The notes under the pieces: model-generated | Told to the model about the DNA's origin: nothing | What the model saw: the letters and a program-made list of their open reading frames with translations, nothing else | Databases searched by the model: none | Made by a program: the position numbers and the translations under genes | Shown: piece after piece, positions 2,876 to 53,113 of the stretch | How positions within the stretch are numbered: the stretch's first letter is position 1 | Layout of the letters: each line of letters begins with the position of its first letter | Source of the DNA: Squalus acanthias | Lineage: Eukaryota | Reading direction: 5' to 3' | Length of the DNA stretch: 64,000 bases | Assembly (NCBI GenBank): GCA_030390025.1 | Contig: CM059432.1 | Location: forward strand, 14,262,001 to 14,326,000

Positions 2876-3273
2876 CATGATGCGGAGATGCCGGTGTTGG
2901 ACTGAGGTGGACAAAAGTGAGAAGTCGCACAACACCAGGTTATAGTCCAACAGTTTTATTTGAAATCACAAGCTTTTGGAGCGGCTGCTCCTTCGTCAGG
3001 TGAAGTGAAGAAATACAAATGGGCACAGCATATATAGACAGAGAACAATGCCTGTGCAGAGAACAATGCCAGATGACTACAGTTAATCTTTCTGACTGCC
3101 CTTTAACTGCAGTCGTCTGGCATTGTTCTCTGCACAGGCATTGTTCTCTGTCTATATATGCTGTGCCCATTTGTATTTCTTCACTTCACCTGACGAAGGA
3201 GCAGCCGCTCCGAAAGCTTGTGATTTCAAATAAAACTGTTGGACTATAACCTGGTGTTGTGCGACTTCTCACT
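2876..3273. mobile_element. Fold-back Penelope-like element (inverted pLTR pair) inserted in a CR1
   Basis: 174-bp arms 2913-3086 and 3103-3276 with a 16-bp spacer. 15-bp TSD TTTATAAATAGAGGC (2861-2875, 3274-3288). Each arm holds a hammerhead-like motif. Confidence 0.8.
3186..3223 (+). ncRNA. Minimal type-I hammerhead ribozyme motif
   Basis: Stem I tcac - CTGACGA - A - stem II ggagc/agcc/gctcc - GAAA - GCTT (palindromic AGCT in place of stem III, CUU cleavage triplet) - stem I gtga. Confidence 0.75.
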
Positions 3274-4995
3274 TTTATAAATAGAGGCATAGAGTACAAA
3301 AGCAAGGAAGTTATGATGAACCTTTATAAAACACTGGTTTGGCATCAACTGCAGTATTGTGTCCAATTCTGGGCACCGCACTTTAGGAAGGATGTGAAGG
3401 CCTTAGAGAGGGTGCAGAAAAGATTTACAAGAATGGTTCCTGGGATGAGGGACTTCAGTTACGTGGATAGACTGGAGAAGCTGGGGTTGTTCTCCTTAGA
3501 GCAGAGAAGATTGAGAGAAGATTTGATAGAGGTGTTCAAAACCATGAGGGGTTGAGACAGAGTAGAAACAGAGAGAAACTGTTCCCATTGGCGGAAGGGT
3601 TGCGAACTAGAGGACACAGATTTAAGGTGATTGGCAGAAGATTCAAAGGCGACATGAGGAAAAACATTTTTACACAGCGAGTGGTTAAGATCTGGAATGC
3701 ACTGCAATGCACTGGTGGTGGAGGCAGACTCAATTATGGCTTTCAAAAGGGAATTAGATAAGTACCTGAAGGAAAAAAAATTGCAGGGCTACGGGGAAAG
3801 GGCGGGGGATTGGGACTAGCTGAGGTGCTCTTGCAGAGAGCCGGCTCGGGCTCGACGGGCTGAATGGCCTCCTACTGTGCTGTAACCATTCTATGATTCT
3901 AGGATGAAGGAAAACCACATATCCTGTGATCTTGCAAATAGTGGGAAGAGGCTCTGGAGACAACATGAAAGCTTTTGATTGAACAGAGGAGGACAAAGAA
4001 GTATAGGATTGATCAGGGTGGGAAAGAAGTCGGCAAATCCCCCACTCCATTTTAACTGACCCCCCCCATCTGATTTCGGGGGGGTTGTGGGGGGGGAGTT
4101 AAAATCAGGAGCAATATTGTTCTTGCATTTCTAATTAGAATAAACTGCAGCGGGCATGGTGACATGCCAAAAATGGCGCAGCCACTAGCCATTGTACTTT
4201 CCATCACTCTATAGACAATTCCAGACACCTTCATTTAAAGCCGTCCTGACGATGCTTGATTTTGCCTGCCACGGATTAAACATCTGTACACATATCTAAT
4301 CTTAATTGGTGAATTGCTTCAGGTTTTGCCAAATTCTAGTGGTAAGAAGTTTCACTCACCCAAGACATAATGTTGGACAGGCATTTGAATATTACAGGAA
4401 AAGCTAGTGTCAGCATTGTGGCAGGAGGTTCGAGTTGAGTGCCATCTCTGTACGTACAAAAGCTGACCCTAGGTTTGTGGATGATACTGTTGAACGGGCC
4501 ACGTGTAGAAGATGATTGATGACCAATGATGGAGCCCTGGATCTCACCAGAGGTGATCGTGTGGAGACGGGAGGAAAATCTGTTTGAGGAGATGTAGTCA
4601 CTGCTTTGGGATGAGTAGGAATGGAAGCAGACACACAGAGGGAACCCGTGAAGGAGAAAGCGATTAGAAGAGAATGGAGAGGCCAACAATGGCGAATGTG
4701 ACAGAGAAGCTGAAGAAGACAAGGAGGGACAGTAAGCTGCAGCTGTAATCACACAAGACATCATCGGTGGCTTTGACTAGGAGCTATTACCTGGTGGAAA
4801 GTAATGTTAGTGACAGTACTAGCGGTGCACATGTTTCATGTACAGTATCTAGGTGCTGCATTTAGCTCGTTTATGTCACAAACTTCTCTATGTTGGTTGT
4901 GGATGTGCCCTTAGTTGAGGGAGTAGCCCTAGTGAATGATTGGAAGAGATACAGAAGACCCACAGTTATGGTTCAGGCTTTTGTCCCAGGTTTTT

Positions 4996-20681: not shown

Positions 20682-21574
20682 GGGGGAGAAATTCAGTATC
20701 GCCCCATTTGGGGCGTAATTATCGGCCGGGTGCAAAGATTAGCGCCTGGCGCTAATTATCGCCACCGACTGCAAACTTGACTTTTATCGCCCCTGGAGGT
20801 GATTGCAGCGCTAAATCAGGCGCTTCACACCTGTCTTAAGGCGCAAAGGCCGAGGAGCGAGACACTACCTCAGAGCGCTGGCGAAGCTCATGTAATGTCA
20901 GTCAGCAATGGAACACACACACAATGGCACGGGCCAGTTCTTAAAGGGGATGGTTAATCTTGCTTTCCATCCACATCCTGTTCATTGCAGCCTTGAATCT
21001 CGGCCTGGAGAGACCTGCACATCAAATGTGCTGGAAAGAACAATGGAGAGTACCAGGCCAAGAGCTCAGAGTACAGCCCCCACAGTCTCTGCTAAATCGA
21101 TACAAGGAATGGCAAATCAAAATGAACCTGCAAAGTGCTGCTCAGTACCCAAAACTCCTTCACACAATGTTGAATCTCTCCAGAAGTCTCTCCCTCTCTC
21201 TCTCAGAATGCGTAGTTCAAAAATGGCACCAACAATAAAAGGCAGGAAGCGGTCACCTTTAAATAGCGCTCCCCCTTTCCCTTCATGACTGCAGAACGCT
21301 CCCCTCAACCTGTCGTTGCTAGCGTCAGGCGGTAAGGCAGGGGGCACCACTCAATATCCGCTCCGGGGCGATACCGGGGCGTTGCGCACTCGAGTGACGT
21401 CATGATCTGCCGGCGCAGGATATCGTGGCGGTAGTGTTTAGCGCCGCCGCAAAATGTCTAGTTAATTTTGCGAGCGGCGCAAACTTCGCCGCGCCTGGGC
21501 GCTAGATGCTTTGCGCCCCATTAGCGCCCTCTTAAGGCGCTAACGGGAGGCGCAACCAACTGAATTTTTCCCCC
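20682..21574 (-). mobile_element. Internally deleted non-autonomous relative of the 37273-41506 Harbinger, inverted orientation
   Basis: Ends GGGGGAGAAATT / AATTTTTCCCCC. The left part resembles the reverse complement of about 41130-41506. The right part resembles the reverse complement of about 37273-37700 (e.g. gcgctaacgggaggcgcaaccaactgaattttt). Both coding regions are essentially missing; TSD ambiguous. Confidence 0.9.
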
Positions 21575-30145: not shown

Positions 30146-30688
30146 GTGTCACGAAGGCAGCCCAGAAATGACAGAATGAGTTAAACAAAACATGTGAGCC
30201 GGCTGAACAATGACAGATGAAATTTAATGCAGACGACTGTAAAGTTCTGCCCACAGGATCAATGTAAATGAAAATTGGGCGGTTTCTAAAACGGGCAGCC
30301 AATCCGCAATGCTGGGCGGCACTGAAAATCTACCCTTCTGTTTCTCTCGTCTAACTAGTTTTTAATCCAATGTTCTACCTTATCCTAATTTCATACACCT
30401 TAGTCCTCTCCAATAGTCTCCCATGTGGCACCTAACTGAGAATAAATTGCTTCAACACCTAAACCTACATTGTTCTCAGCGTAAGCATAGTCATACCAAG
30501 ACCTGAATATATCAATGTACTCCTCCAGTAAATACCATGTAATGAAAATGGACAATATTTTCATAAGTTATATGTACTTTTGACAACTCAATTATAAAAG
30601 CTGTAAAATATGTCTCAAAACTGACAGAAAGGAGAAGTACTCACCTTTGGGAATAGTTATGATTGTTCTAATAAAGGTATAGTCCACA

Positions 30689-31519
30689 TGACAAGGCCTT
30701 GGACAACGTGGACCACTTTCCATACCTCGGGAGCCTACTGTCAACAAGGGCAGACGTCGATGACAAAGTCCAACACCGCCTTCAGTGTGCCAGTGCAGCC
30801 TTCGGTCGCCTGAGGAAAAGAGTGTTTGAAGACCAGGACCTCAAACCCGGCACTAAGCTCATGGTCTACAGAGCAGCAGTGATACCTGCCCTGCTGTATG
30901 CCTCAGAGACATGGGCCATGTACAGCAGGCACCTCAAAGCACTGGAGAGGTACCACCAACGCTGCCTCTGCAAGATCCTGCAAATCCATTGGCAGGATAG
31001 GCACACCAACGTCAGTGTTCTCGCTCAGGCCAACATCCCCAGAATCTTAGCTTTGCCCACGCTCGATCAGCTCCGATGGATGGGTCACATTTTCCGCATG
31101 CCCGATACGAGACTCTCAAAACAAGCGCTCTACTCGGAGCTCTGGCACGGCAAGAGAGCCTTAGGTGGGCAGAGGAAACGCTTCAAGGACACCCTCAAAG
31201 CCTCCTTGAAAAAGTGTAATATCCCCACCGACACCTGGGAATCACTGGCCCAAGACCGCACAAAGTGGAGGAGAAGCATCCGGGAAGGCGCTGAACACCT
31301 CGAGTCTCTTTGCCGGGAGCAAGCAGAAGCCAAGTGCAGGCAGCGCAAGGAGCACATGTCAACCCAAGCACCCCACCCACCCGTCCGTTCAACCACCGTC
31401 TGCCCCACCTGTGACAGAGACTGTAGGTCCCGCATTGGACTTATCAGTCACCTGAGAACTCATTTTTAATGTGGAAGCAAGTCATCCTTGGTTCCGAGGG
31501 ACTGCCTAAGAAGAGAAGA
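30689..31519 (+). mobile_element. RTE-clade LINE, 5'-truncated, with TSD
   Basis: Open 256-aa ORF end (FPYLGS...VIPALLYASETW...LRWMGH...C2H2); 10-bp TSD ATAGTCCACA (30679-30688, 31520-31529); AAG-rich tail. Confidence 0.93.
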
Positions 31520-33864: not shown

Positions 33865-35649
33865 GGCCGCAATTTCCCCTACCTCGGCGGGTCTGTTGTG
33901 GGTGACATCGGTGGTGGGTCCCGACCCTGCTGCCGGCTCCAGCCCACTGTCCAAAATTAATTTCCTCTGATTGGGTTTGTTAAGCCCACCCAGCGCATTT
34001 GCCGGCCAATTGAAGGAAGCGGATCTGATGACGTCATTTGATGACGCGTCATCAGCCGGATTCCTTAAAGGGACTATGCGCAAATTGATTTTGGCATTTG
34101 TGCTGTCAGTGTTCTACAGCATTGAGGTGCTGCAAACACTGACAAGCACAGCACAGAGGTGGACGTTTGCACCCAGGCTCTCCCATGACTCTCTCCATAT
34201 GCTTATGGAGGGAGTCACAGCACGCAGGGAGGTTCTCTTCCCTTCCCATGGGCAGAAGAGACCTCCCCAGGAGATCAATGCAGTCTGGTTGCACATTGCA
34301 CAGGAGGGCACAAGCAGGGATGTCGTCAGGAGGACCAGTTTGCAGTGACGCAAACCTTTCAATGATCACAAAACGTTAGTACAAAGCCACACTCAACCTC
34401 ATCCTGCTGTGCCATTCATCACATCTCCATCACTCTGCCTTCCCTACCCTACTCGTGCACATCCTTACTCACACCAACTTACCTTGCACCTCCACCCATC
34501 CCTCTCTATCTACATTATCACATCCCCATCTCACTAGCCACCCCTCACACTCACCCTCATCCTAGTGCAATCATACCAACTAACAACACACAAAGGTAGG
34601 CACTTGGGTGTTTTATGCAATGTTCATGTAAAGTTTCTGTTAATGTGGTGTCAAACATTGAAACCTTTATTTTCAACACTTTGTGTTCTTGGACAGATCT
34701 GTGTGCACCTTTGGAAGTGGCTTAGTGAGTTGCAGTGAATGGTGAGACAAAACGGTAGCCCCCCCCCCCCTCCCCGCAATGGTCATGAGTGTGAAAGGAA
34801 TGGCTTGGGCATTGTAGGGATGCTTTATGGTGTTGGTGTGGGGTGGTGCCAACCTGGTGCATCACGTGGCAGCCAGGGTATACAGTGTCAAGTGAAGTAA
34901 ACCTGGCTGTGGTAAGGCCATCCCTGGCCTCCTGGGCAGCAATGTGGTCGAGTGCTGATACCCTCTGTCTTGTGCAGCATCAGGTGATTGCGGAGAAGGT
35001 TGATGTTGTTGGTGCTGCTGGTGTGCCTGGTGCTGCTAGTGTTGGGGCTGATCGTGACGGGATTCTGAGGACCACGGTGAGATAGTTTCAAGGGCACCGA
35101 TGCTGATGTAATAGATGGCAGGTGATCTTGAGATGACAGAAGCGATCTGTCAATGGTGAGTGAGGTTGTTCCAATGAGGTGACACTGGACAGAGAGTTTG
35201 CTCCAAACACTTGCAACCTGCCTAAAGCTCAATCTGTCTTCCAAATGCAATAAGCAACAGCTTTTAACATTGGAAAGTGAACAGATGTGAGATGGGAGCT
35301 TTTATAACACATTTTCAGCTGTCTAGTAATGAGATGATTCCATGGTCATACGACTCCTGACCTGCTTACTTGACGTGATCCCCGAGCAGTGTCGACCCCG
35401 TGGGCGACCTTGTAAAATGTAAAGGAGCGCTCAAAATACTTCTTAATGGGCTGTTAACAAGGTCATATGACCTGAATTGGTTCCCCCGCCGCTGCGTGTC
35501 GGGTCTGTTCAGCATTGACAGACCCAACATCTGGGAAAGGCACATGGCTGGGGGTTGACAGCAAGGTCCCAACCCGCTGTCAAAAAACTTTTTTCCCCCA
35601 CCCGACCCACCACCGAATGTGCCCGCTGACCCCCCGAAAAACTCTCCCC
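33865..35649 (+). mobile_element. Degenerate non-autonomous Harbinger with a Myb-domain remnant
   Basis: TGA flanks both ends (33862-33864, 35650-35652); TIRs are weak. About 34165-34370 reads APRLSHDSLHMLMEGVTARREVLFP...AVWLHIAQEGTSRDVVRRTSLQ*RKPFND, which parallels Myb exon 1 of the intact element. Confidence 0.7.
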
Positions 35650-37005: not shown

Positions 37006-37580
37006 TTACATTTACTCTATCTAAACCCTTCATGATTTTAAACTCCTCTATCAAATCTGTTCCAAGGAGAACAACCCCAGCTTCCCTAGTCTATCCACAT
37101 AACTGTAATCCCTCATCCCTGGAACCATTCTAGTAAATCTCTTCTGTACCCTCTCCAAAGCCTTCACGTCCTTCCTAAATTGTGGTGTCCAGAATTGGAC
37201 ACAATGCTCCAGCTGGGGCCGAACTAGTGTTTTATATAGGTTTAGCAGCACTTCCTGGCTTTTATAGTCTATGGGGTAAAAATTCAGTTGGTTGCGCCTC
37301 CCGTTAGTGCCTTAAAAGGGCGCTAATGGGGCGTTAAGGCGCTAACGCCCGGGCGCAGCGCTGTTTGCGCCGCTCGAGAACTTAACTTGAGATTGTGCGG
37401 CGGCGCTAAAACTTACCGTTGCGACCACCTGCGCGCGCAGATTGTGACGTCATTCCGTGGTGCAACGCCCTTGGGGCGCCCCGGAGCGGAAATTGAGTGG
37501 CGCCCCCTGCCTTACCGCCTGGCGCTTCCAACGACCGGAAGACTGGAACGTTATCAATCGGTGTGGGGCTGGGGGGGGGC

Positions 37581-37590
37581 GCTATTTAAA
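37581..37590 (+). promoter_or_regulatory. Candidate TATA-like box for the transposase gene
   Basis: GCTATTTAAA about 200 bp upstream of the ATG. The same motif is kept in the deleted relative (TTTAAATAGC at about 21258, opposite orientation). Confidence 0.45.
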
Positions 37591-37785
37591 GGGGGCCTCT
37601 TCCTGTCTTTTTCTGTGGTCGACATTTATGCACCACTCGTTCTGAGAGAGAGAGAGAGATTCGGAGAGAGAGAGAGAGAGACTTCTACATTGACTCAACG
37701 CTTTGTGAGGTAGTTTGGCCTAGTTCATCCTAACTTTGCTGCTACTTTCGTTGCTGTACCTCATTACTTTTCTGGCAAAGAGAAT

Positions 37786-38946
37786 ATGGGGGCTGCAATG
37801 ATTGGGGGCGTCGTCCTGCTCCAGCTCAATCGGAGGATAGTGAGACGCAGACAGAGAGTGGCAATGATGGCCAGACGGAGGAGGGCCATCAGGCGCATGT
37901 ACAGGAGAGCTTACCCTCCCAGGGTATATCGTGAACAGCTCTCCTACATCCACATGTCCAAGGAGCTGTGTTTGCGAAGGCTGCGATTCAGCAAGGAGGT
38001 GGTCACTGAGCTCTGCCACCTGCTGCAGCCAGATCTGCAGCCTCAGCTGAGGTCCAGGACGTCTCTGTCGGTGGCAGTGAAGGTCACAGTGGCTTTGAAC
38101 TTCTACGCCACTGGCTCATTCCAAGCTGCTGTTGGGGACCTCGCCAATATCTCCCAGTTTGCGGTGCATCGCTGCATCCGGCAGGTCACCAATGCCCTCT
38201 TCACAAGGAGACGAGACTTCATCTCCTTCCCTATGACCCCAGACAAGCAGCATGACCGTGCTATGGGCTTTGCGAGGGTAGCGGGCTTCCCCATGGTGCA
38301 GGGCGCCATTGACTGCACGCATGTGGCTTTGCGTGCTCCGCGAGAGAATGCAGAGGAGTTCCGGAACAGAAAGGGGTTCCATTCCTTGAATGTGCAGCTG
38401 GTCTGTGACCACAGACAGGTGATTCTCGCTGTCAATGCCCACTATCCGGGCAGCTGCCACGATGCTTTCATCCTGCGCCAGAGTACTGTGGCAGAAATTT
38501 TCGAGGCACCGCATCAGCCAGTTGGTTGGCTTCTGGGGGACAAGGGGTACGCATTGAGCACCTGGCTGATGACACCGCTCCGTACGCCAAACACCCCTGC
38601 TGAGCTGCGGTACAATGAAAGCCATCAAGCAACCAGGAACATTATTGAGCGCACAATCGGCGTGCTCAAACAACGATTCCGCTGTCTGGACCATTCCGGA
38701 GGAGCCCTGCAGTACTCTCCTGAGCAAGTTTCCAAATTCGTAGTGGTGTGCTGCATGTTGCACAACATGGCAATCCTCAGGACGCAGCCAATGCCACCAG
38801 GCCTTGCAGCACCACAAGAGGAGGAGGAGGAAGAGGAGGAACAGGCCGAGGACGATGATCAGCAGCAGCACCAAGGCAGGAGGGCGGCCCACAATGGTCA
38901 AACTGCAAGGGCCGTCCGTCAACGACTAATAGCAAGCCGCTTCTAG
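37786..38946 (+). CDS. Harbinger DDE transposase (HARBI1-like), 386 aa, uninterrupted
   Basis: Motifs typical of PIF/Harbinger transposases: N-terminal HTH region (VTVALNFYATGSFQAAVGDLANISQFAVHRCI), GAIDCTH, FRNRKGFHSLNVQLVCD, PGSCHDAFIL, LLGDKGY, YNESHQATRNIIERTIGVLKQRFRCL, CCMLHN, then an acidic tail. Confidence 0.96.
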   Translation: MGAAMIGGVVLLQLNRRIVRRRQRVAMMARRRRAIRRMYRRAYPPRVYREQLSYIHMSKELCLRRLRFSKEVVTELCHLLQPDLQPQLRSRTSLSVAVKVTVALNFYATGSFQAAVGDLANISQFAVHRCIRQVTNALFTRRRDFISFPMTPDKQHDRAMGFARVAGFPMVQGAIDCTHVALRAPRENAEEFRNRKGFHSLNVQLVCDHRQVILAVNAHYPGSCHDAFILRQSTVAEIFEAPHQPVGWLLGDKGYALSTWLMTPLRTPNTPAELRYNESHQATRNIIERTIGVLKQRFRCLDHSGGALQYSPEQVSKFVVVCCMLHNMAILRTQPMPPGLAAPQEEEEEEEEQAEDDDQQQHQGRRAAHNGQTARAVRQRLIASRF

Positions 38947-39057
38947 GGCCCCTGCCAGTGCTACAAACATGAATCAACCCAGCACGCAACCCCTAAGCCG
39001 GCCAAGGCACCAATAATTCCAACCACCAGCCATGTATATTTTGAATACAGAAACTTA

Positions 39058-39113
39058 TTTATTGTACAAACTCTGTGTGTGTCAATTCCTCATGACAAAC
39101 TCATAGAAATAAA
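39058..39113. terminator. Opposed polyadenylation signals of the two convergent Harbinger genes
   Basis: AATAAA on + at 39108-39113 downstream of the transposase stop. TTTATT at 39058-39063 is AATAAA on -, downstream of the Myb stop. Confidence 0.5.
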
Positions 39114-39240
39114 CACAAAAAAACAGTCAATAACATAACTGGTTCTCACAACCTGGAGATAATGTCCAAAACACTAAACAAAAGTTGGGCCATGAACCTC
39201 GGCCTTTAATAAAAAAATGACCAGCATTTTGGCACACCTC

Positions 39241-41149
39241 CTACTTTTTGCCCTTCGAGGGTGATCTCCTTCCCTTGCGCACTTCCCCCCTTCTAACCCT
39301 ACTGCTCCTCCGTAATGGGACCTCAGTGGCTGCAGCAAGGCTGGTGGAAGGCTGCTGCTTGTCAGACCCTGACACTGCAGATGCCCCTGAAGGACGGCCT
39401 CGACCACTTCTGGGCCTGGAGGGCCCGGCTGCAGACTGCACCAACTCTGCATGGGCGGCAGCAGTCTGTCCTACAGGCGGTGGCAAGTGCAGTGGAGAAG
39501 TGACAGTGTTGGCAGCAGGAATGCTGTCATCGTGAGAGAGGACAGCAACTCCCTGCTCGCCCGACACACTGGCACTCCCACGGGGCAGCACTTCAGCATC
39601 CGGAGCAATTTGCCGGAGAACAGATTGCTGGCCTGCTGCGGCGCGGTGACAGCCCCGGGGACATGTGCACGAACCATCGAGGATGGCAGCAGTCAATGCT
39701 CGCGTGGCCTCAATCTGAGTCTGCATGAGAGCAGTCAGAGATGGGTTCCTGGCAGCCAGTGACTGAATTGCAGCACTAAGCTTTAGTGTGGCATCCGCCT
39801 GTGCTACAGCGAAGTGCTCCACACTCCTTGCCAGTGCCTCAATGCATTCGGGCACCCTTCCCACTGCACCCATGAGCTCAGTGTGCATGCCCACCGCCTG
39901 GCTGTTCATTTCTGCAATCAGCCGCTCCTCCTCTGCGTCCATTGCATTAGGAGTGTCTGGCATACTCTCCCTCTGGGGAGAAGGCTCCCGTTCTTCCCTC
40001 CCCCCCCCATGGCGTGGCTGCAGCCCGCTGGGTCCTGGAGCTTCACCATCATCAGCCCCTTCCCCCCTGCTCCCCCGTTCTTCCCTCCCCCCCCAATGGC
40101 GTTGCTGCAGCCCGCTGGGTCCTGGAACTTCACCATCATCAGCCCCTTCCCCCCTGCTCCCCTCCGGGGAAGGCGTGTTCCCAGTGTGGCCATGGGCTTC
40201 CTCGGGAGAGGGTGGCACTGATGCTCCGGCTTCCTCTTCCTCCTCAGCTGCAGCATCACTCCCAGTGGCAGCTTCAGGGACCATCTCCTCAGCTGGTGAA
40301 TCACCATCTGAAAGCAGGGAGGTACAAGAGTGGCTTTAGTGTGAGGACAGGGTGGCAGTAAGGGAGGAATAAGTGCAGCGAGTTAGCAAGTTGGATTGAA
40401 AGTGTCAAAGGCTGGTATTGTGAGGGACAAGTGGAAGGACAGAGGACAAAAAGGTGATGACCTTACCATTGCTGTCCACAACGGGGTCGGCGTCTCCAGT
40501 GGCGACGGGACCGATCACCCGGCTTGCCACAATCCTGTGGACGCGCTCCTCCAGATCGCTGAGGGGTTGCAGCTGAAGCCGCCCTCCACCCGTCCGTTGC
40601 TGCTGTCTCCGATTATGAGCCAGCTTAGCCTGCAAGAAAAAGGACAGCATCTGAGTCAATATACAGCCATGGTCTTGCTGATGTGCCTCCCATAGGTGAA
40701 TAGCCCTTACAATATGCAGCCATGGTCTTGCCTGATGTGCCTCCCATAGGTGAATAGCCCTTACTGTATGCAAAGTGTGGAATGTGTGTGTGTGTTTGAT
40801 GAAAGGGCCATAGGTGTTGCATGAGTGTTGTGCATTGGGGTTTTAAGACCCTCTGGCCATAGAGTGAGGTTGAGATGGAGGGATGGAGAGGTATTGAGAA
40901 AAAGCCACTCACCCTGACGACCCGAGTGAGGTCGTTGAACTTTTTGCGGCACTGAACATGGGTCCTGGGCACCATGCTCCTGGAGGAGACGCTCTGAGCC
41001 ACCTCCCTCCACACTCTTCTGAACTCGCGTGGCAAAGGCCTCCTGCCACTCTCCGGGAACAGCATGCATCGTCTGCGCTCCACTGCGTCAACCAGAGCAT
41101 CCAAGGCCCGCTCGGTGAAGCGATGAGCGCGTTCTCTCACCCTCTCCAT
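39241..41149 (-). CDS. Harbinger Myb/SANT-like DNA-binding protein, 3 coding exons, about 488 aa
   Basis: Exon 1 41149-40913 (79 aa: MERVRERAHRFTERALDALVDAV...WREVAQSV...RTHVQCRKKFNDLTRVVR, donor GTGAGT, phase 0). Exon 2 40629-40467 (acceptor tttttcttgCAG; AKLAHNRRQQQRTGGG..., donor GTAAGG, phase 1). Exon 3 40307-39241 (acceptor ctgctttCAG), which reads in frame into ORF 39241..40284 and ends in a basic NLS-like RRSSRVRRGEVRKGRRSPSKGKK. Confidence 0.9.
39988..40161 (-). repeat. In-frame 87-bp (29-aa) tandem duplication in Myb gene exon 3
   Basis: GSRGEGADDGEVPGPSGLQQRHWGGREER / GSRGEGADDGEAPGPSGLQPRHGGGREER; period 87 bp. Confidence 0.9.
40664..40764. repeat. About 53-bp tandem duplication in Myb gene intron 1
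   Basis: cagccatggtcttgc(c)tgatgtgcctcccataggtgaatagcccttac occurs twice. Confidence 0.85.
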
Positions 41150-42149
41150 GCTTGGCAGCAAAATGGATTACAGGTCTCTCCAGGCTGAGATTCAAGGCTG
41201 CAATGAGCAGGGTGTGGCTGGGGAGCAAGTGGCCCCCCCCGCTTTAAGAAGTGTCCGGCGCCAGTGTGTCTGTGTTCCCTCGCTAACTGGCAGCAGCTGC
41301 GCTGCGCTCGTGCGCTGAGGTAGCGCCTCACTCCTAGGCCTTTGCGCCTTAAGAGAGGTGTGCAGCGCCTAATTTAGCGCTCCACTCACCTCCCGGGGCG
41401 GTAAAAGTGAAGTTTCCTGTCAGTGCCGATAATTAGCGCCAGGCGCTAATATTTGCGCGCGGACGATATTTGCGCCCCAAATGGGGCGCGACCTAATTTC
41501 TACCCCTATGCCTCTATTTATAAAGCCCAGGATCCCATATGCTTTATTAACTGTTTTGTTAAACTGTCCCGCCACCTGCAAAGAGTTGAGCACAAGCACC
41601 CACAGGTCTCTCTGTTCTTGCACCTCCTTTAAAATTGTACCATGCAGTATGTATGGTCTCTTCTCAGTTTTCCTACCACTTGTGGTGTTTCCTGGGAGAG
41701 CATTCAAACGATCAAGTCAAGGTAGGAGTACGTGGGGTGTATTTTAACACCGGTATAAACCTATTAACCCATGATGTAGTCGGCTTCCTAGAGATTGATG
41801 GCTACTAACAAACCTCAATGGCAAACTGCTTGAATGATAATACCTGCTCTATCATAAAGTCTTTTCTTTATGAATTGTTTACAAACTTCTGAGGCTGAGA
41901 ATGGAGCAAGCCTTTCCCATTCTATTAGGTACCAGAAATTATTAGGAAAAGAATCTGTTGCCCTATCAGGTAAAACAGTAATATAAGAAACATTGCCAAC
42001 TTGAGGGAAATCTCAGAAGAGGAGAAGTGACATATGGCTGTGATCTTAATGGAACCACTTTAAATGGTAGAACGTATCTTTCTCGTGTTTCCCAAGCCTG
42101 AACAGTCCTACATTCCGATGGACATTGGGAATTATGGAAGAAGGAACTG

Positions 42150-51576: not shown

Positions 51577-53113
51577 AGAACATAAGAACATAAGAAATAG
51601 GAGCAGGAGTAGGCCAATCGGCCCCACGAGCCTGCTCCGCCATTCAATAAGATCATGGCTGATCTGATCCTAACCGCCAATCTACTATCTATCACAGAAC
51701 CATCTCCTGCATCTAACAGAATTGCACACACAAAATAGGAGCAGAATCAGGCTACACGGTCCCTGGGTCCGCTCCACTACCCACAGGGCCATGACCGATC
51801 CGAACCTAGACTCATGTCCAAATTCCTGCCCGCTCCCCGTAACCCTTAATGCCCTTTACTTCTAGGAAACTGTCTATTTCTGTTTTAAATTTATTTAATG
51901 ATGTAGCTTCTACAGCTTTTTGTGGCAGCATATTCCATGGACCTACCACCCTCTGAGTGAAGTAGTTCCTCCTCATCTCAGTTTTGAAAGAGCAGCCCCT
52001 TATTCTAAGACTATGTCCCCTAGTTCTAGTCTCACCCGTCATCGGGAACATCCTCCCCGCATCCACCCGATCCAACCCCTTCACAATCTTATATGTTTCA
52101 ATAAGATCGCCTCTCATTCTTCTGAACTCCAATGAGTAGAGTCCCAATCTACCCAACCTCTCCTCATATGACCACCCCCTCATCCCCGGGATTAACCGAG
52201 TGAACCTTTTTTGCACTGCCTCGAGAGCAAGGATGTCTTTCCTTAAGTAAGGACACCAAAACTGTATGCAGTATTCCAGGTGCGGTCTCACCAATACCTT
52301 GTACAACTGAAGCAATACCTCCCTATTTTTATATTCTATCCCCCTAGCAATGAAAGCCAACATTCCATTTGCCTTCTTAATCACTTGCTGCACCTGCATA
52401 CTAACCTTTTGAGTTTCGTGCACCAGGACCCCCAGATCCCTTTGCACTTCAGTACTCTCCAGTTTCTTGCCATTAAGATAATAAATTGCTCTAGGATTTT
52501 TCCTGCCAAAGTGCATCACCTCACACTTTCCAGTGTTGTATTCCATCTGCCAAATCTCTGCCCACTTACTTAGCCCGTCTATGTCCCCTTGCAGGTTTTT
52601 TATGTCCTCCTCGCTCACTACTTTCCCTCTCATCTTTGTATCATCTGCAAATTTTGATATGTTACACTTGGTCCCTTCCTCCAAATCGTTAATATAGATT
52701 GTAAAGAGTTGGGGACCCAGCACTGACCCCTGTGGAACACCACTAGTTACTGATTGCCAGTCTGAGAATGAACCATTTATCCCAACTCTTTGCTTTCTGT
52801 TAGATAGCCAATCCTCTATCCATGCCAGAATATTACCCCCAATCCCGTGATTTTTTACCTTAAGCAATAATCTTTTGTGTGGCACCTTGTCAAATGCCTT
52901 TTGGAAGTCTAAATACACTACGTCCACTGGTTCCCTTTATCCACTCTATATGTTACTTCCTCAAAGAACTCCAGCAAATTTGTCAAACACGACTTCCCCT
53001 TCGTAAAACCATGCTGACTTTGTCCTATTAAATTATGATTATCCAAATGTCCTGTTACTGTTTCCTTAATAATGGACTCCAAAATTTTACCTACCACAGA
53101 TGTTAGGCTAACC
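51577..53113 (-). mobile_element. CR1 LINE, 5'-truncated, 371-aa open RT/C-terminal segment, doubled 3' UTR
   Basis: [32 protein letters not shown] through to the stop at 51812; (CATAAGAA)n tail. Confidence 0.96.

Follow-up and report, generated by a model that had tools for sequence, protein, structure and literature searches.

A three-exon Myb-like gene inside a full-length PIF/Harbinger transposon of Squalus acanthias

Results

A Myb-like gene assembled from three reading frames

We analyzed a 64,000-nucleotide stretch of the Squalus acanthias genome, hereafter the window, and found on its minus strand a three-exon gene that lies, together with a transposase gene, inside a complete PIF/Harbinger element. 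We are confident that the best explanation of this locus is a Myb-like helper gene of a full-length PIF/Harbinger transposon, spliced to give a protein of 488 aa. An earlier note on this DNA had proposed that three separate open reading frames were linked by GT-AG introns of phases 0 and then 1, with a product of about 488 aa. When joined, the minus-strand exons 41149-40913 (237 nt), 40629-40467 (163 nt), and 40307-39241 (1067 nt) gave 1467 nt, i.e., 488 aa plus a stop with no internal stops, and the three-exon model was confirmed. The features of the gene were as follows.

40913..41149, minus strand: exon 1, aa 1-79; Myb/SANT trihelix (Pfam match, model pLDDT 87)
40630..40912, minus strand: intron 1, 283 nt; GT-AG, phase 0, exon 1 frame open throughout
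40467..40629, minus strand: exon 2, aa 80-133; completes Myb helix 3 and carries RTGGG and the conserved L(T/S)xxE motif
40308..40466, minus strand: intron 2, 159 nt; GT-AG, phase 1, joint 40307-40467 in runs X1 and X5
39241..40307, minus strand: exon 3, aa 134-488 plus stop; from the frame and homolog alignments
39987..40162, minus strand: 87-bp (29-aa) tandem duplication, two 87-bp units with 3 differences
39607..39942, minus strand: spliced aa 256-367, predicted to form long helices (H122-233 in the model of exon 3)
39244..39402, minus strand: C-terminal tail, with RGRP (AT-hook-like core, aa 436) and a basic NLS-like cluster (aa 465-488)
39205..39210, minus strand: candidate polyadenylation signal of the Myb gene, ATTAAA, from sequence only
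39108 and 39208, plus strand: AATAAA on the transposase strand, likewise

The 88 GT and 170 AG sites in 39200-41200 were ranked by a crude consensus score. The intron 1 donor at 40912 and acceptor at 40630 were the top sites of their kinds, and for intron 2 the donor at 40466 ranked joint second with two other GT sites and the acceptor at 40308 joint second with one other AG site.

The gene lies within a complete PIF/Harbinger element

The Myb gene and the transposase gene are convergent within 37273-41506. The element and its parts, along with a short derivative found elsewhere in the window, are listed below.

37273..41506, unstranded: complete PIF/Harbinger element, 4,234 bp; both genes inside the terminal repeats and target duplication
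37270..37272, plus strand: left copy of the target-site duplication, TAT
41507..41509, plus strand: right copy of the target-site duplication, TAT; a single triplet in the paralogous repeat 56278-55965
37273..37284, plus strand: left terminal inverted repeat; 11/12 terminal bases match the right end
41495..41506, minus strand: right terminal inverted repeat
37285..37602, unstranded: left subterminal region; seven GGCGC(T/A/C)A, putative Myb sites
41177..41494, unstranded: right subterminal region; six GGCGC(T/A/C)A, including a 19-bp palindrome at 41432-41450
37786..38946, plus strand: Harbinger DDE transposase, 386 aa, single exon; DDE_Tnp_4 (PF13359), E 4e-40
20683..21574, unstranded: MITE, a non-autonomous derivative with ~80% identity to both element ends

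Since a single pair of terminal repeats and a single 3-bp duplication enclose both genes, the Myb gene is the partner reading frame of the transposase, as had been suggested from the sequence. The catalytic triad of the transposase, D176/D226/E288, is intact, and its closest relatives among the matches listed were shark and ray proteins annotated as 'putative nuclease HARBI1', with at most 66% identity, as would fit a cartilaginous-fish host. A PDB sequence search with this protein returned three matches only, which were judged spurious.

The element flanks rejoin to a repeat also found at 56278-55965, which is presumably CR1-like, and the single triplet there represents a paralogous empty site. 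In addition, X1 and X5 contain contigs that lack the element and continue from the repeat at its flank into 41506-41507, and the element is thus an insertion into an older repeat. No host gene was identified in its flanks. Compared with the target consensus of the zebrafish element Harbinger3_DR, the insertion flanks matched at 7/12 bases, a value reached by 2.8% of the sites in the window.

At the left and right ends, GGCGC(T/A/C)A, a motif chosen after inspecting k-mer counts, occurred 7 and 6 times in 330 bp, with shuffle means of 0.50 and 0.38, respectively, and 0 of 300 shuffles reached the observed counts. Elsewhere, there was one copy in the element interior and four in the other 58.7 kb. 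The MITE retains several copies at the same offsets. The repeats are candidate binding sites for the Myb protein. The MITE has ATG on both sides and flanks matching the target consensus at 9/12 bases, stops just past the region of the Myb start codon, and keeps the 19-bp palindrome; loose ends in three sequencing runs resembled this MITE type. Variant contigs numbered 138, 887, and 1204 per run, which along with the MITE showed that multiple copies and non-autonomous derivatives exist. Collectively, the element has the five structural features of autonomous PIF/Harbinger transposons that were tested.

Divergence among copies and the state of this copy

In the eight longest pieces of run X14, 41 of 2,367 bases (1.7%) differed from those of the window. 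Across runs, 40 of 183 differences, selected by support, were classified. In the transposase, 17 of the 23 listed differences were synonymous, the share expected being 0.235 (P 5e-7), showing that this gene is under selection. The 12 differences listed for the Myb gene included 3 synonymous and 9 non-synonymous changes, 8 of the latter being located at aa 173-194 and 320-321, and these data fit neutrality. Six indels were listed across runs, none of them frame-shifting in coding sequence. These observations fit an origin of the copy in an active lineage whose helper evolves fast, and a helper of this kind has been described for the Harbinger family (PMC9179366). The region of exon 1 and intron 1 (40743-41216) was near-identical across runs, with 0/261, 1/209, 0/123, and 4/246 differences, and run pieces outside it differed from the window by up to 8%.

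It may be that the gene model is right and that this copy was inserted recently and is already inactive or silenced, its open frames reflecting youth. This agrees with a Myb-like helper gene spliced to 488 aa in everything save present activity, and we give it slightly better than even chances. Copy-level changes, such as the 29-aa duplication that is missing from homologs, point to it, and X1 and X14 have contigs that break close to corresponding points of the two 87-bp units; moreover, no read of any run was tied to the copy at 37273-41506. Pulling the other way are the intact triad, the open frames of both genes, the perfect target duplication, and a subterminal CpG content that is not depleted (observed/expected 1.19 and 0.89 versus 0.43 for the window).

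Splicing of the Myb gene

Words of the element were present at 0.36-0.71 in 14 run rows, belonging to 7 studies and 7 organism labels, with no run recorded as RNA among the holders listed, and the public runs X1, X5, X14, and X15 were aligned to 37200-41600. X1 and X5 are probably RNA, as far as their status could be guessed, and come from different studies with different organism labels. One contig in each of them joined 40307 to 40467, skipping 159 nt with minus-strand GT-AG ends, at depths of 488 and 622 and with short sides of 18 and 24 letters. Divergence from the window was 4.0% and 4.5% in the longest pieces of these runs, and with copies about 4% divergent, the joint shows splicing of intron 2 in relatives. 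It was absent from X14, where a contig read through intron 2; since X14 is another organism, it is an imperfect DNA control. Thus, of the two junctions expected from the earlier note, the one at 40467/40307 was found in two of the four runs, and the one at 40913/40629 was found in none of the four. X15, the sole raw RNA run, yielded 0 aligned reads with about 12% of the run sampled.

For intron 1, the evidence comes from homologs. The set consisted of 75 proteins, i.e., 74 database homologs and P0006. Alignments passing aa 90 were obtained for 56 of the 75 with the spliced form versus 5 with intron 1 retained, and the spliced form scored better for 43 homologs and worse for 13. The best full-length relative, P0124, aligned over aa 11-485 with 36% identity (E 6e-59 in the 75-sequence database), with all three exons in order, and its tblastn matches broke off and resumed at the predicted exon edges. 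That homologs track all three exons in order is more than chance. Moreover, the Glu of the L(T/S)xxE motif in exon 2 was invariant in 32 of 32 aligned, selected sequences. Because homologs follow the spliced form, we infer that intron 1 is removed. As a separate observation, P0006, a Pristiophorus gene model, combines Myb exon 1-2 sequence with a Harbinger transposase within a single chain of 523 aa, and is either an annotation artefact or a rearranged element.

The exon 1 frame runs open across intron 1 until it meets a stop at 40625-40627, an openness matched by 407 of 20,000 shuffles (2%), and an X1 contig at 40743-40988 (depth 269) spans the intron 1 donor unspliced. Along with the missing intron 1 joint, these findings could mean that intron 1 retention yields a 174-aa Myb-only protein as the main product, possibly a transposition repressor. 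However, only those 5 of 75 homologs support the intron-coded part, the Pfam Myb model extends beyond the end of exon 1 in homologs, and the donor and acceptor of intron 1 are the best in the region. In addition, the runs cover the whole element including its ends, so unspliced or DNA-derived contigs are expected. A short main product is improbable, and the 488-aa spliced protein is the form considered below. Within intron 1, an internal duplication was observed on the minus strand (40764 and 40710; 54-bp spacing, 33-bp exact core), both copies of which begin with the donor-like site GTAAGG.

Features of the Myb protein

The Pfam scan and the folding run were performed per exon, separately. 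Exon 1 matched PF13873 (Myb_DNA-bind_5) with E 1.3e-9 and 38.3 bits, above the cut-off of 21.7, and the Myb/SANT domain that had been read from the letters was thereby recovered by profile. The exon 1 model was a helical domain with a mean pLDDT of 87, whose nearest solved folds were the DNA-binding domains of Zeste and GT-1; all of these were weaker than E 0.001, and the fold search gave no match at E<=0.001. The PDB sequence search with exon 1 found 0 matches.

Other elements of the layout given in the earlier note were also present. The RTGGG motif is located at aa 91, the 29-aa duplication corresponds to the two 87-bp units at 39987-40162, and the basic NLS-like tail has 9 K/R in 17 aa. 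An acidic region of low model confidence agrees with the proposed acidic disordered stretch, and the helical segment is represented by the helices predicted at spliced aa 256-367, outside of which exon 3 is predicted to be disordered; the exon 3 model had pLDDT of about 80-97 across most of aa 255-344. The second unit of the duplication was missing in 10/10 aligned homologs, suggesting that it is probably recent. As for the AT-hook-like core of the tail, the homolog P0135 gave a weak AT_hook match (E 0.064), under the curated cut-off. Exon 3 matched no Pfam family and, when searched alone, found 0 homologs among 8,000 scored candidates; its homologs were reached via the exon 1 search.

Discussion

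Proposed function and comparison with known systems

In zebrafish Harbinger3_DR, transposition requires both proteins, and the Myb-like one, which binds the transposase as well as a 9-bp subterminal motif, carries the transposase into the nucleus, according to accounts in PMC9392472, PMC9710019, and PMC2836001. By analogy, the shark Myb gene would be transcribed from the right end of the element and spliced to a 488-aa protein, whose N-terminal trihelix would bind the GGCGC(T/A/C)A repeats at both element ends. This protein may also bind the 386-aa DDE transposase encoded by the opposite strand, aid its entry into the nucleus through the basic tail, and position it on the element ends. The transposase would then excise the element and reinsert it at A-N-N-Y-[3 bp]-R-N-N-T, duplicating 3 bp. 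Nuclear import is the weakest step of this scheme, because the transposase has a basic cluster of its own, as dense as that of the Myb tail (9 K/R in 17 aa), and co-expression of the rice Ping proteins in yeast left the localisation of both unchanged (PMC2836001). A complex prediction with the transposase and the first 46 residues of exon 2, run without alignments, scored 0.01, a value that weighs neither for nor against binding.

Harbinger3_DR (Sinzelle et al. 2008, as described in PMC9392472, PMC9710019, PMC2836001, and PMC3016246) has the same two genes, DDE transposase and Myb-like, and shares with the shark element a 3-bp target duplication and a repeated subterminal motif. The three Harbinger-type insertions in the window match its published 15-bp target consensus at 7, 9, and 10 of 12 flank bases, whereas their center triplets are TAT, ATG, and TGA versus CWG in Harbinger3_DR. 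In addition, Harbinger3_DR is a reconstructed consensus and the shark element a native copy with open frames, the two being compared here by description. The 12-bp terminal repeats are close to the length of about 15 bp given in PMC9710019 and below the 25-50 bp given in PMC9179366. The rice Ping/Pong ORF1 and the mPing MITE likewise represent a system of two proteins in which a short non-coding derivative with common ends is mobilized as well, but they belong to a plant clade, and the rice ORF1 did not change the localisation of its transposase (PMC2836001).

Among shark proteins, P0124 and P0125 of Pristiophorus japonicus and P0131 and P0135 of Heptranchias perlo were 28-36% identical to the Myb protein over most of its length, and resembled it in layout, with a Myb domain, TGG motif, and LTxxE motif followed by an acidic linker, a helical segment, and an Arg-rich tail. 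They differ in having no 29-aa duplication and a helical segment 29-50 residues longer, and are annotated merely as uncharacterized or MYPOP-like.

The earlier note had likened the protein to NAIF1/MSANTD-type proteins. NAIF1 and MSANTD1-4, with HARBI1, likewise derive from Harbinger Myb-like and transposase genes and have a trihelix, and genes of the NAIF1/MSANTD type are carried by cartilaginous fishes, as described in PMC9392472. The likeness holds as shared ancestry only, because the gene retains all the marks of a mobile element. Despite the common domain type and a cluster of ray proteins of the same Myb type that is 94-99% conserved, it is very unlikely that the gene has been domesticated in the way of NAIF1 or MSANTD1-4, host genes that are single, syntenic, and immobile (PMC9392472): the terminal repeats, target duplication, partner transposase, and MITE are all kept, the transposase falls outside five conserved groups described below, and neither the many variant contigs nor a best full-length relative with merely 36% identity fits a single-copy conserved ortholog.

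Two-gene Harbinger elements are already well known, and the copy described here, carrying a transposase and its Myb-like helper, is a cleanly annotated case of a known system. A 2022 survey reported no Harbinger in the elephant shark and proposed other cartilaginous fishes for study (PMC9179366). For sharks, Harbinger repeats have already been published in the form of repeat tables (PMC8455134, PMC12498223), and these tables could include the family of this element. Within literature coverage that lacks most subscription papers and Repbase, we found no gene-level account of a full-length shark Harbinger, and within the same coverage no account of shark-specific Harbinger domestication. The element therefore adds a gene-level, full-length example for cartilaginous fishes. 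If the copy is active, it would provide a vertebrate Harbinger that naturally has both proteins, along with a candidate binding motif, and a mechanism known from one reconstructed zebrafish element could be tested in a second animal system.

Conserved transposase-like groups in sharks and rays

A quick tree was built with 47 of the 120 listed transposase matches, true HARBI1 being outside this set. In this tree (n=47), the window transposase was placed among long-branch Pristiophorus sequences. Moreover, five well-supported, short-branch groups joined different shark orders, or sharks and rays. All five are composed of proteins annotated as 'putative nuclease HARBI1', and their members and within-group core identities, cluster members included, were as follows.

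P0022, P0024, P0205-P0207: 88-98%
P0009, P0012, P0208, P0210-P0213: 85-99%
P0039, P0040, P0215-P0218, P0220: 88-97%
P0008, P0016, P0020, P0026: 73-84%
P0004, P0005, P0221, P0222: 86-100%

Identity was 49-59% between groups and 50-62% to the window transposase, and Carcharodon carcharias was represented in four of the five. Glu was found at the position of E288 in 0/27 proteins of these groups, but it was also lost in 4/8 transposon-like controls, so this loss alone proves little. The signal of the five groups is their conservation, which makes them candidates for undescribed domesticated transposases of elasmobranchs. These groups are a better lead for new biology than the Myb gene itself. We can propose only tentatively, and think it rather unlikely, that the element is a native, still-autonomous vertebrate Harbinger, able to transpose with no need of reconstruction, from a lineage that yielded at least five undescribed domesticated transposase genes in sharks and rays; if true, one lineage would hold both a parent element that is still alive and several of its tamed daughters.

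On the Myb side, P0128, P0195, P0196, and P0201 are copies of a Myb_DNA-bind_5 protein of 409-420 aa, 94-99% identical among Hypanus, Hemitrygon, and two Mobula species, and may represent a domesticated Harbinger Myb gene.

Other features of the window

A decayed second Harbinger-type element of a different family was observed at 33865-35649. It has TGA on both sides, weak terminal repeats (6/12), and flanks matching the target consensus at 10/12 bases, and contains a remnant of a Myb exon at 34157-34387 on the plus strand, with about 40% identity and a stop inside; tblastn found no transposase match in it. At 30675-31469, a 264-aa plus-strand frame ends with a weak C2H2 zinc finger (E 0.003, under the cut-off), and the region resembles what we take to be the 3' end of an RTE-type LINE. 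A reverse transcriptase fragment (RVT_1, E 2e-19) at 51812-52936 belongs to a family of repeats that occurs several times in the window. Finally, a near-perfect inverted repeat is located at 2913-3276, with 174-nt arms that are 98% complementary and a 16-nt spacer.
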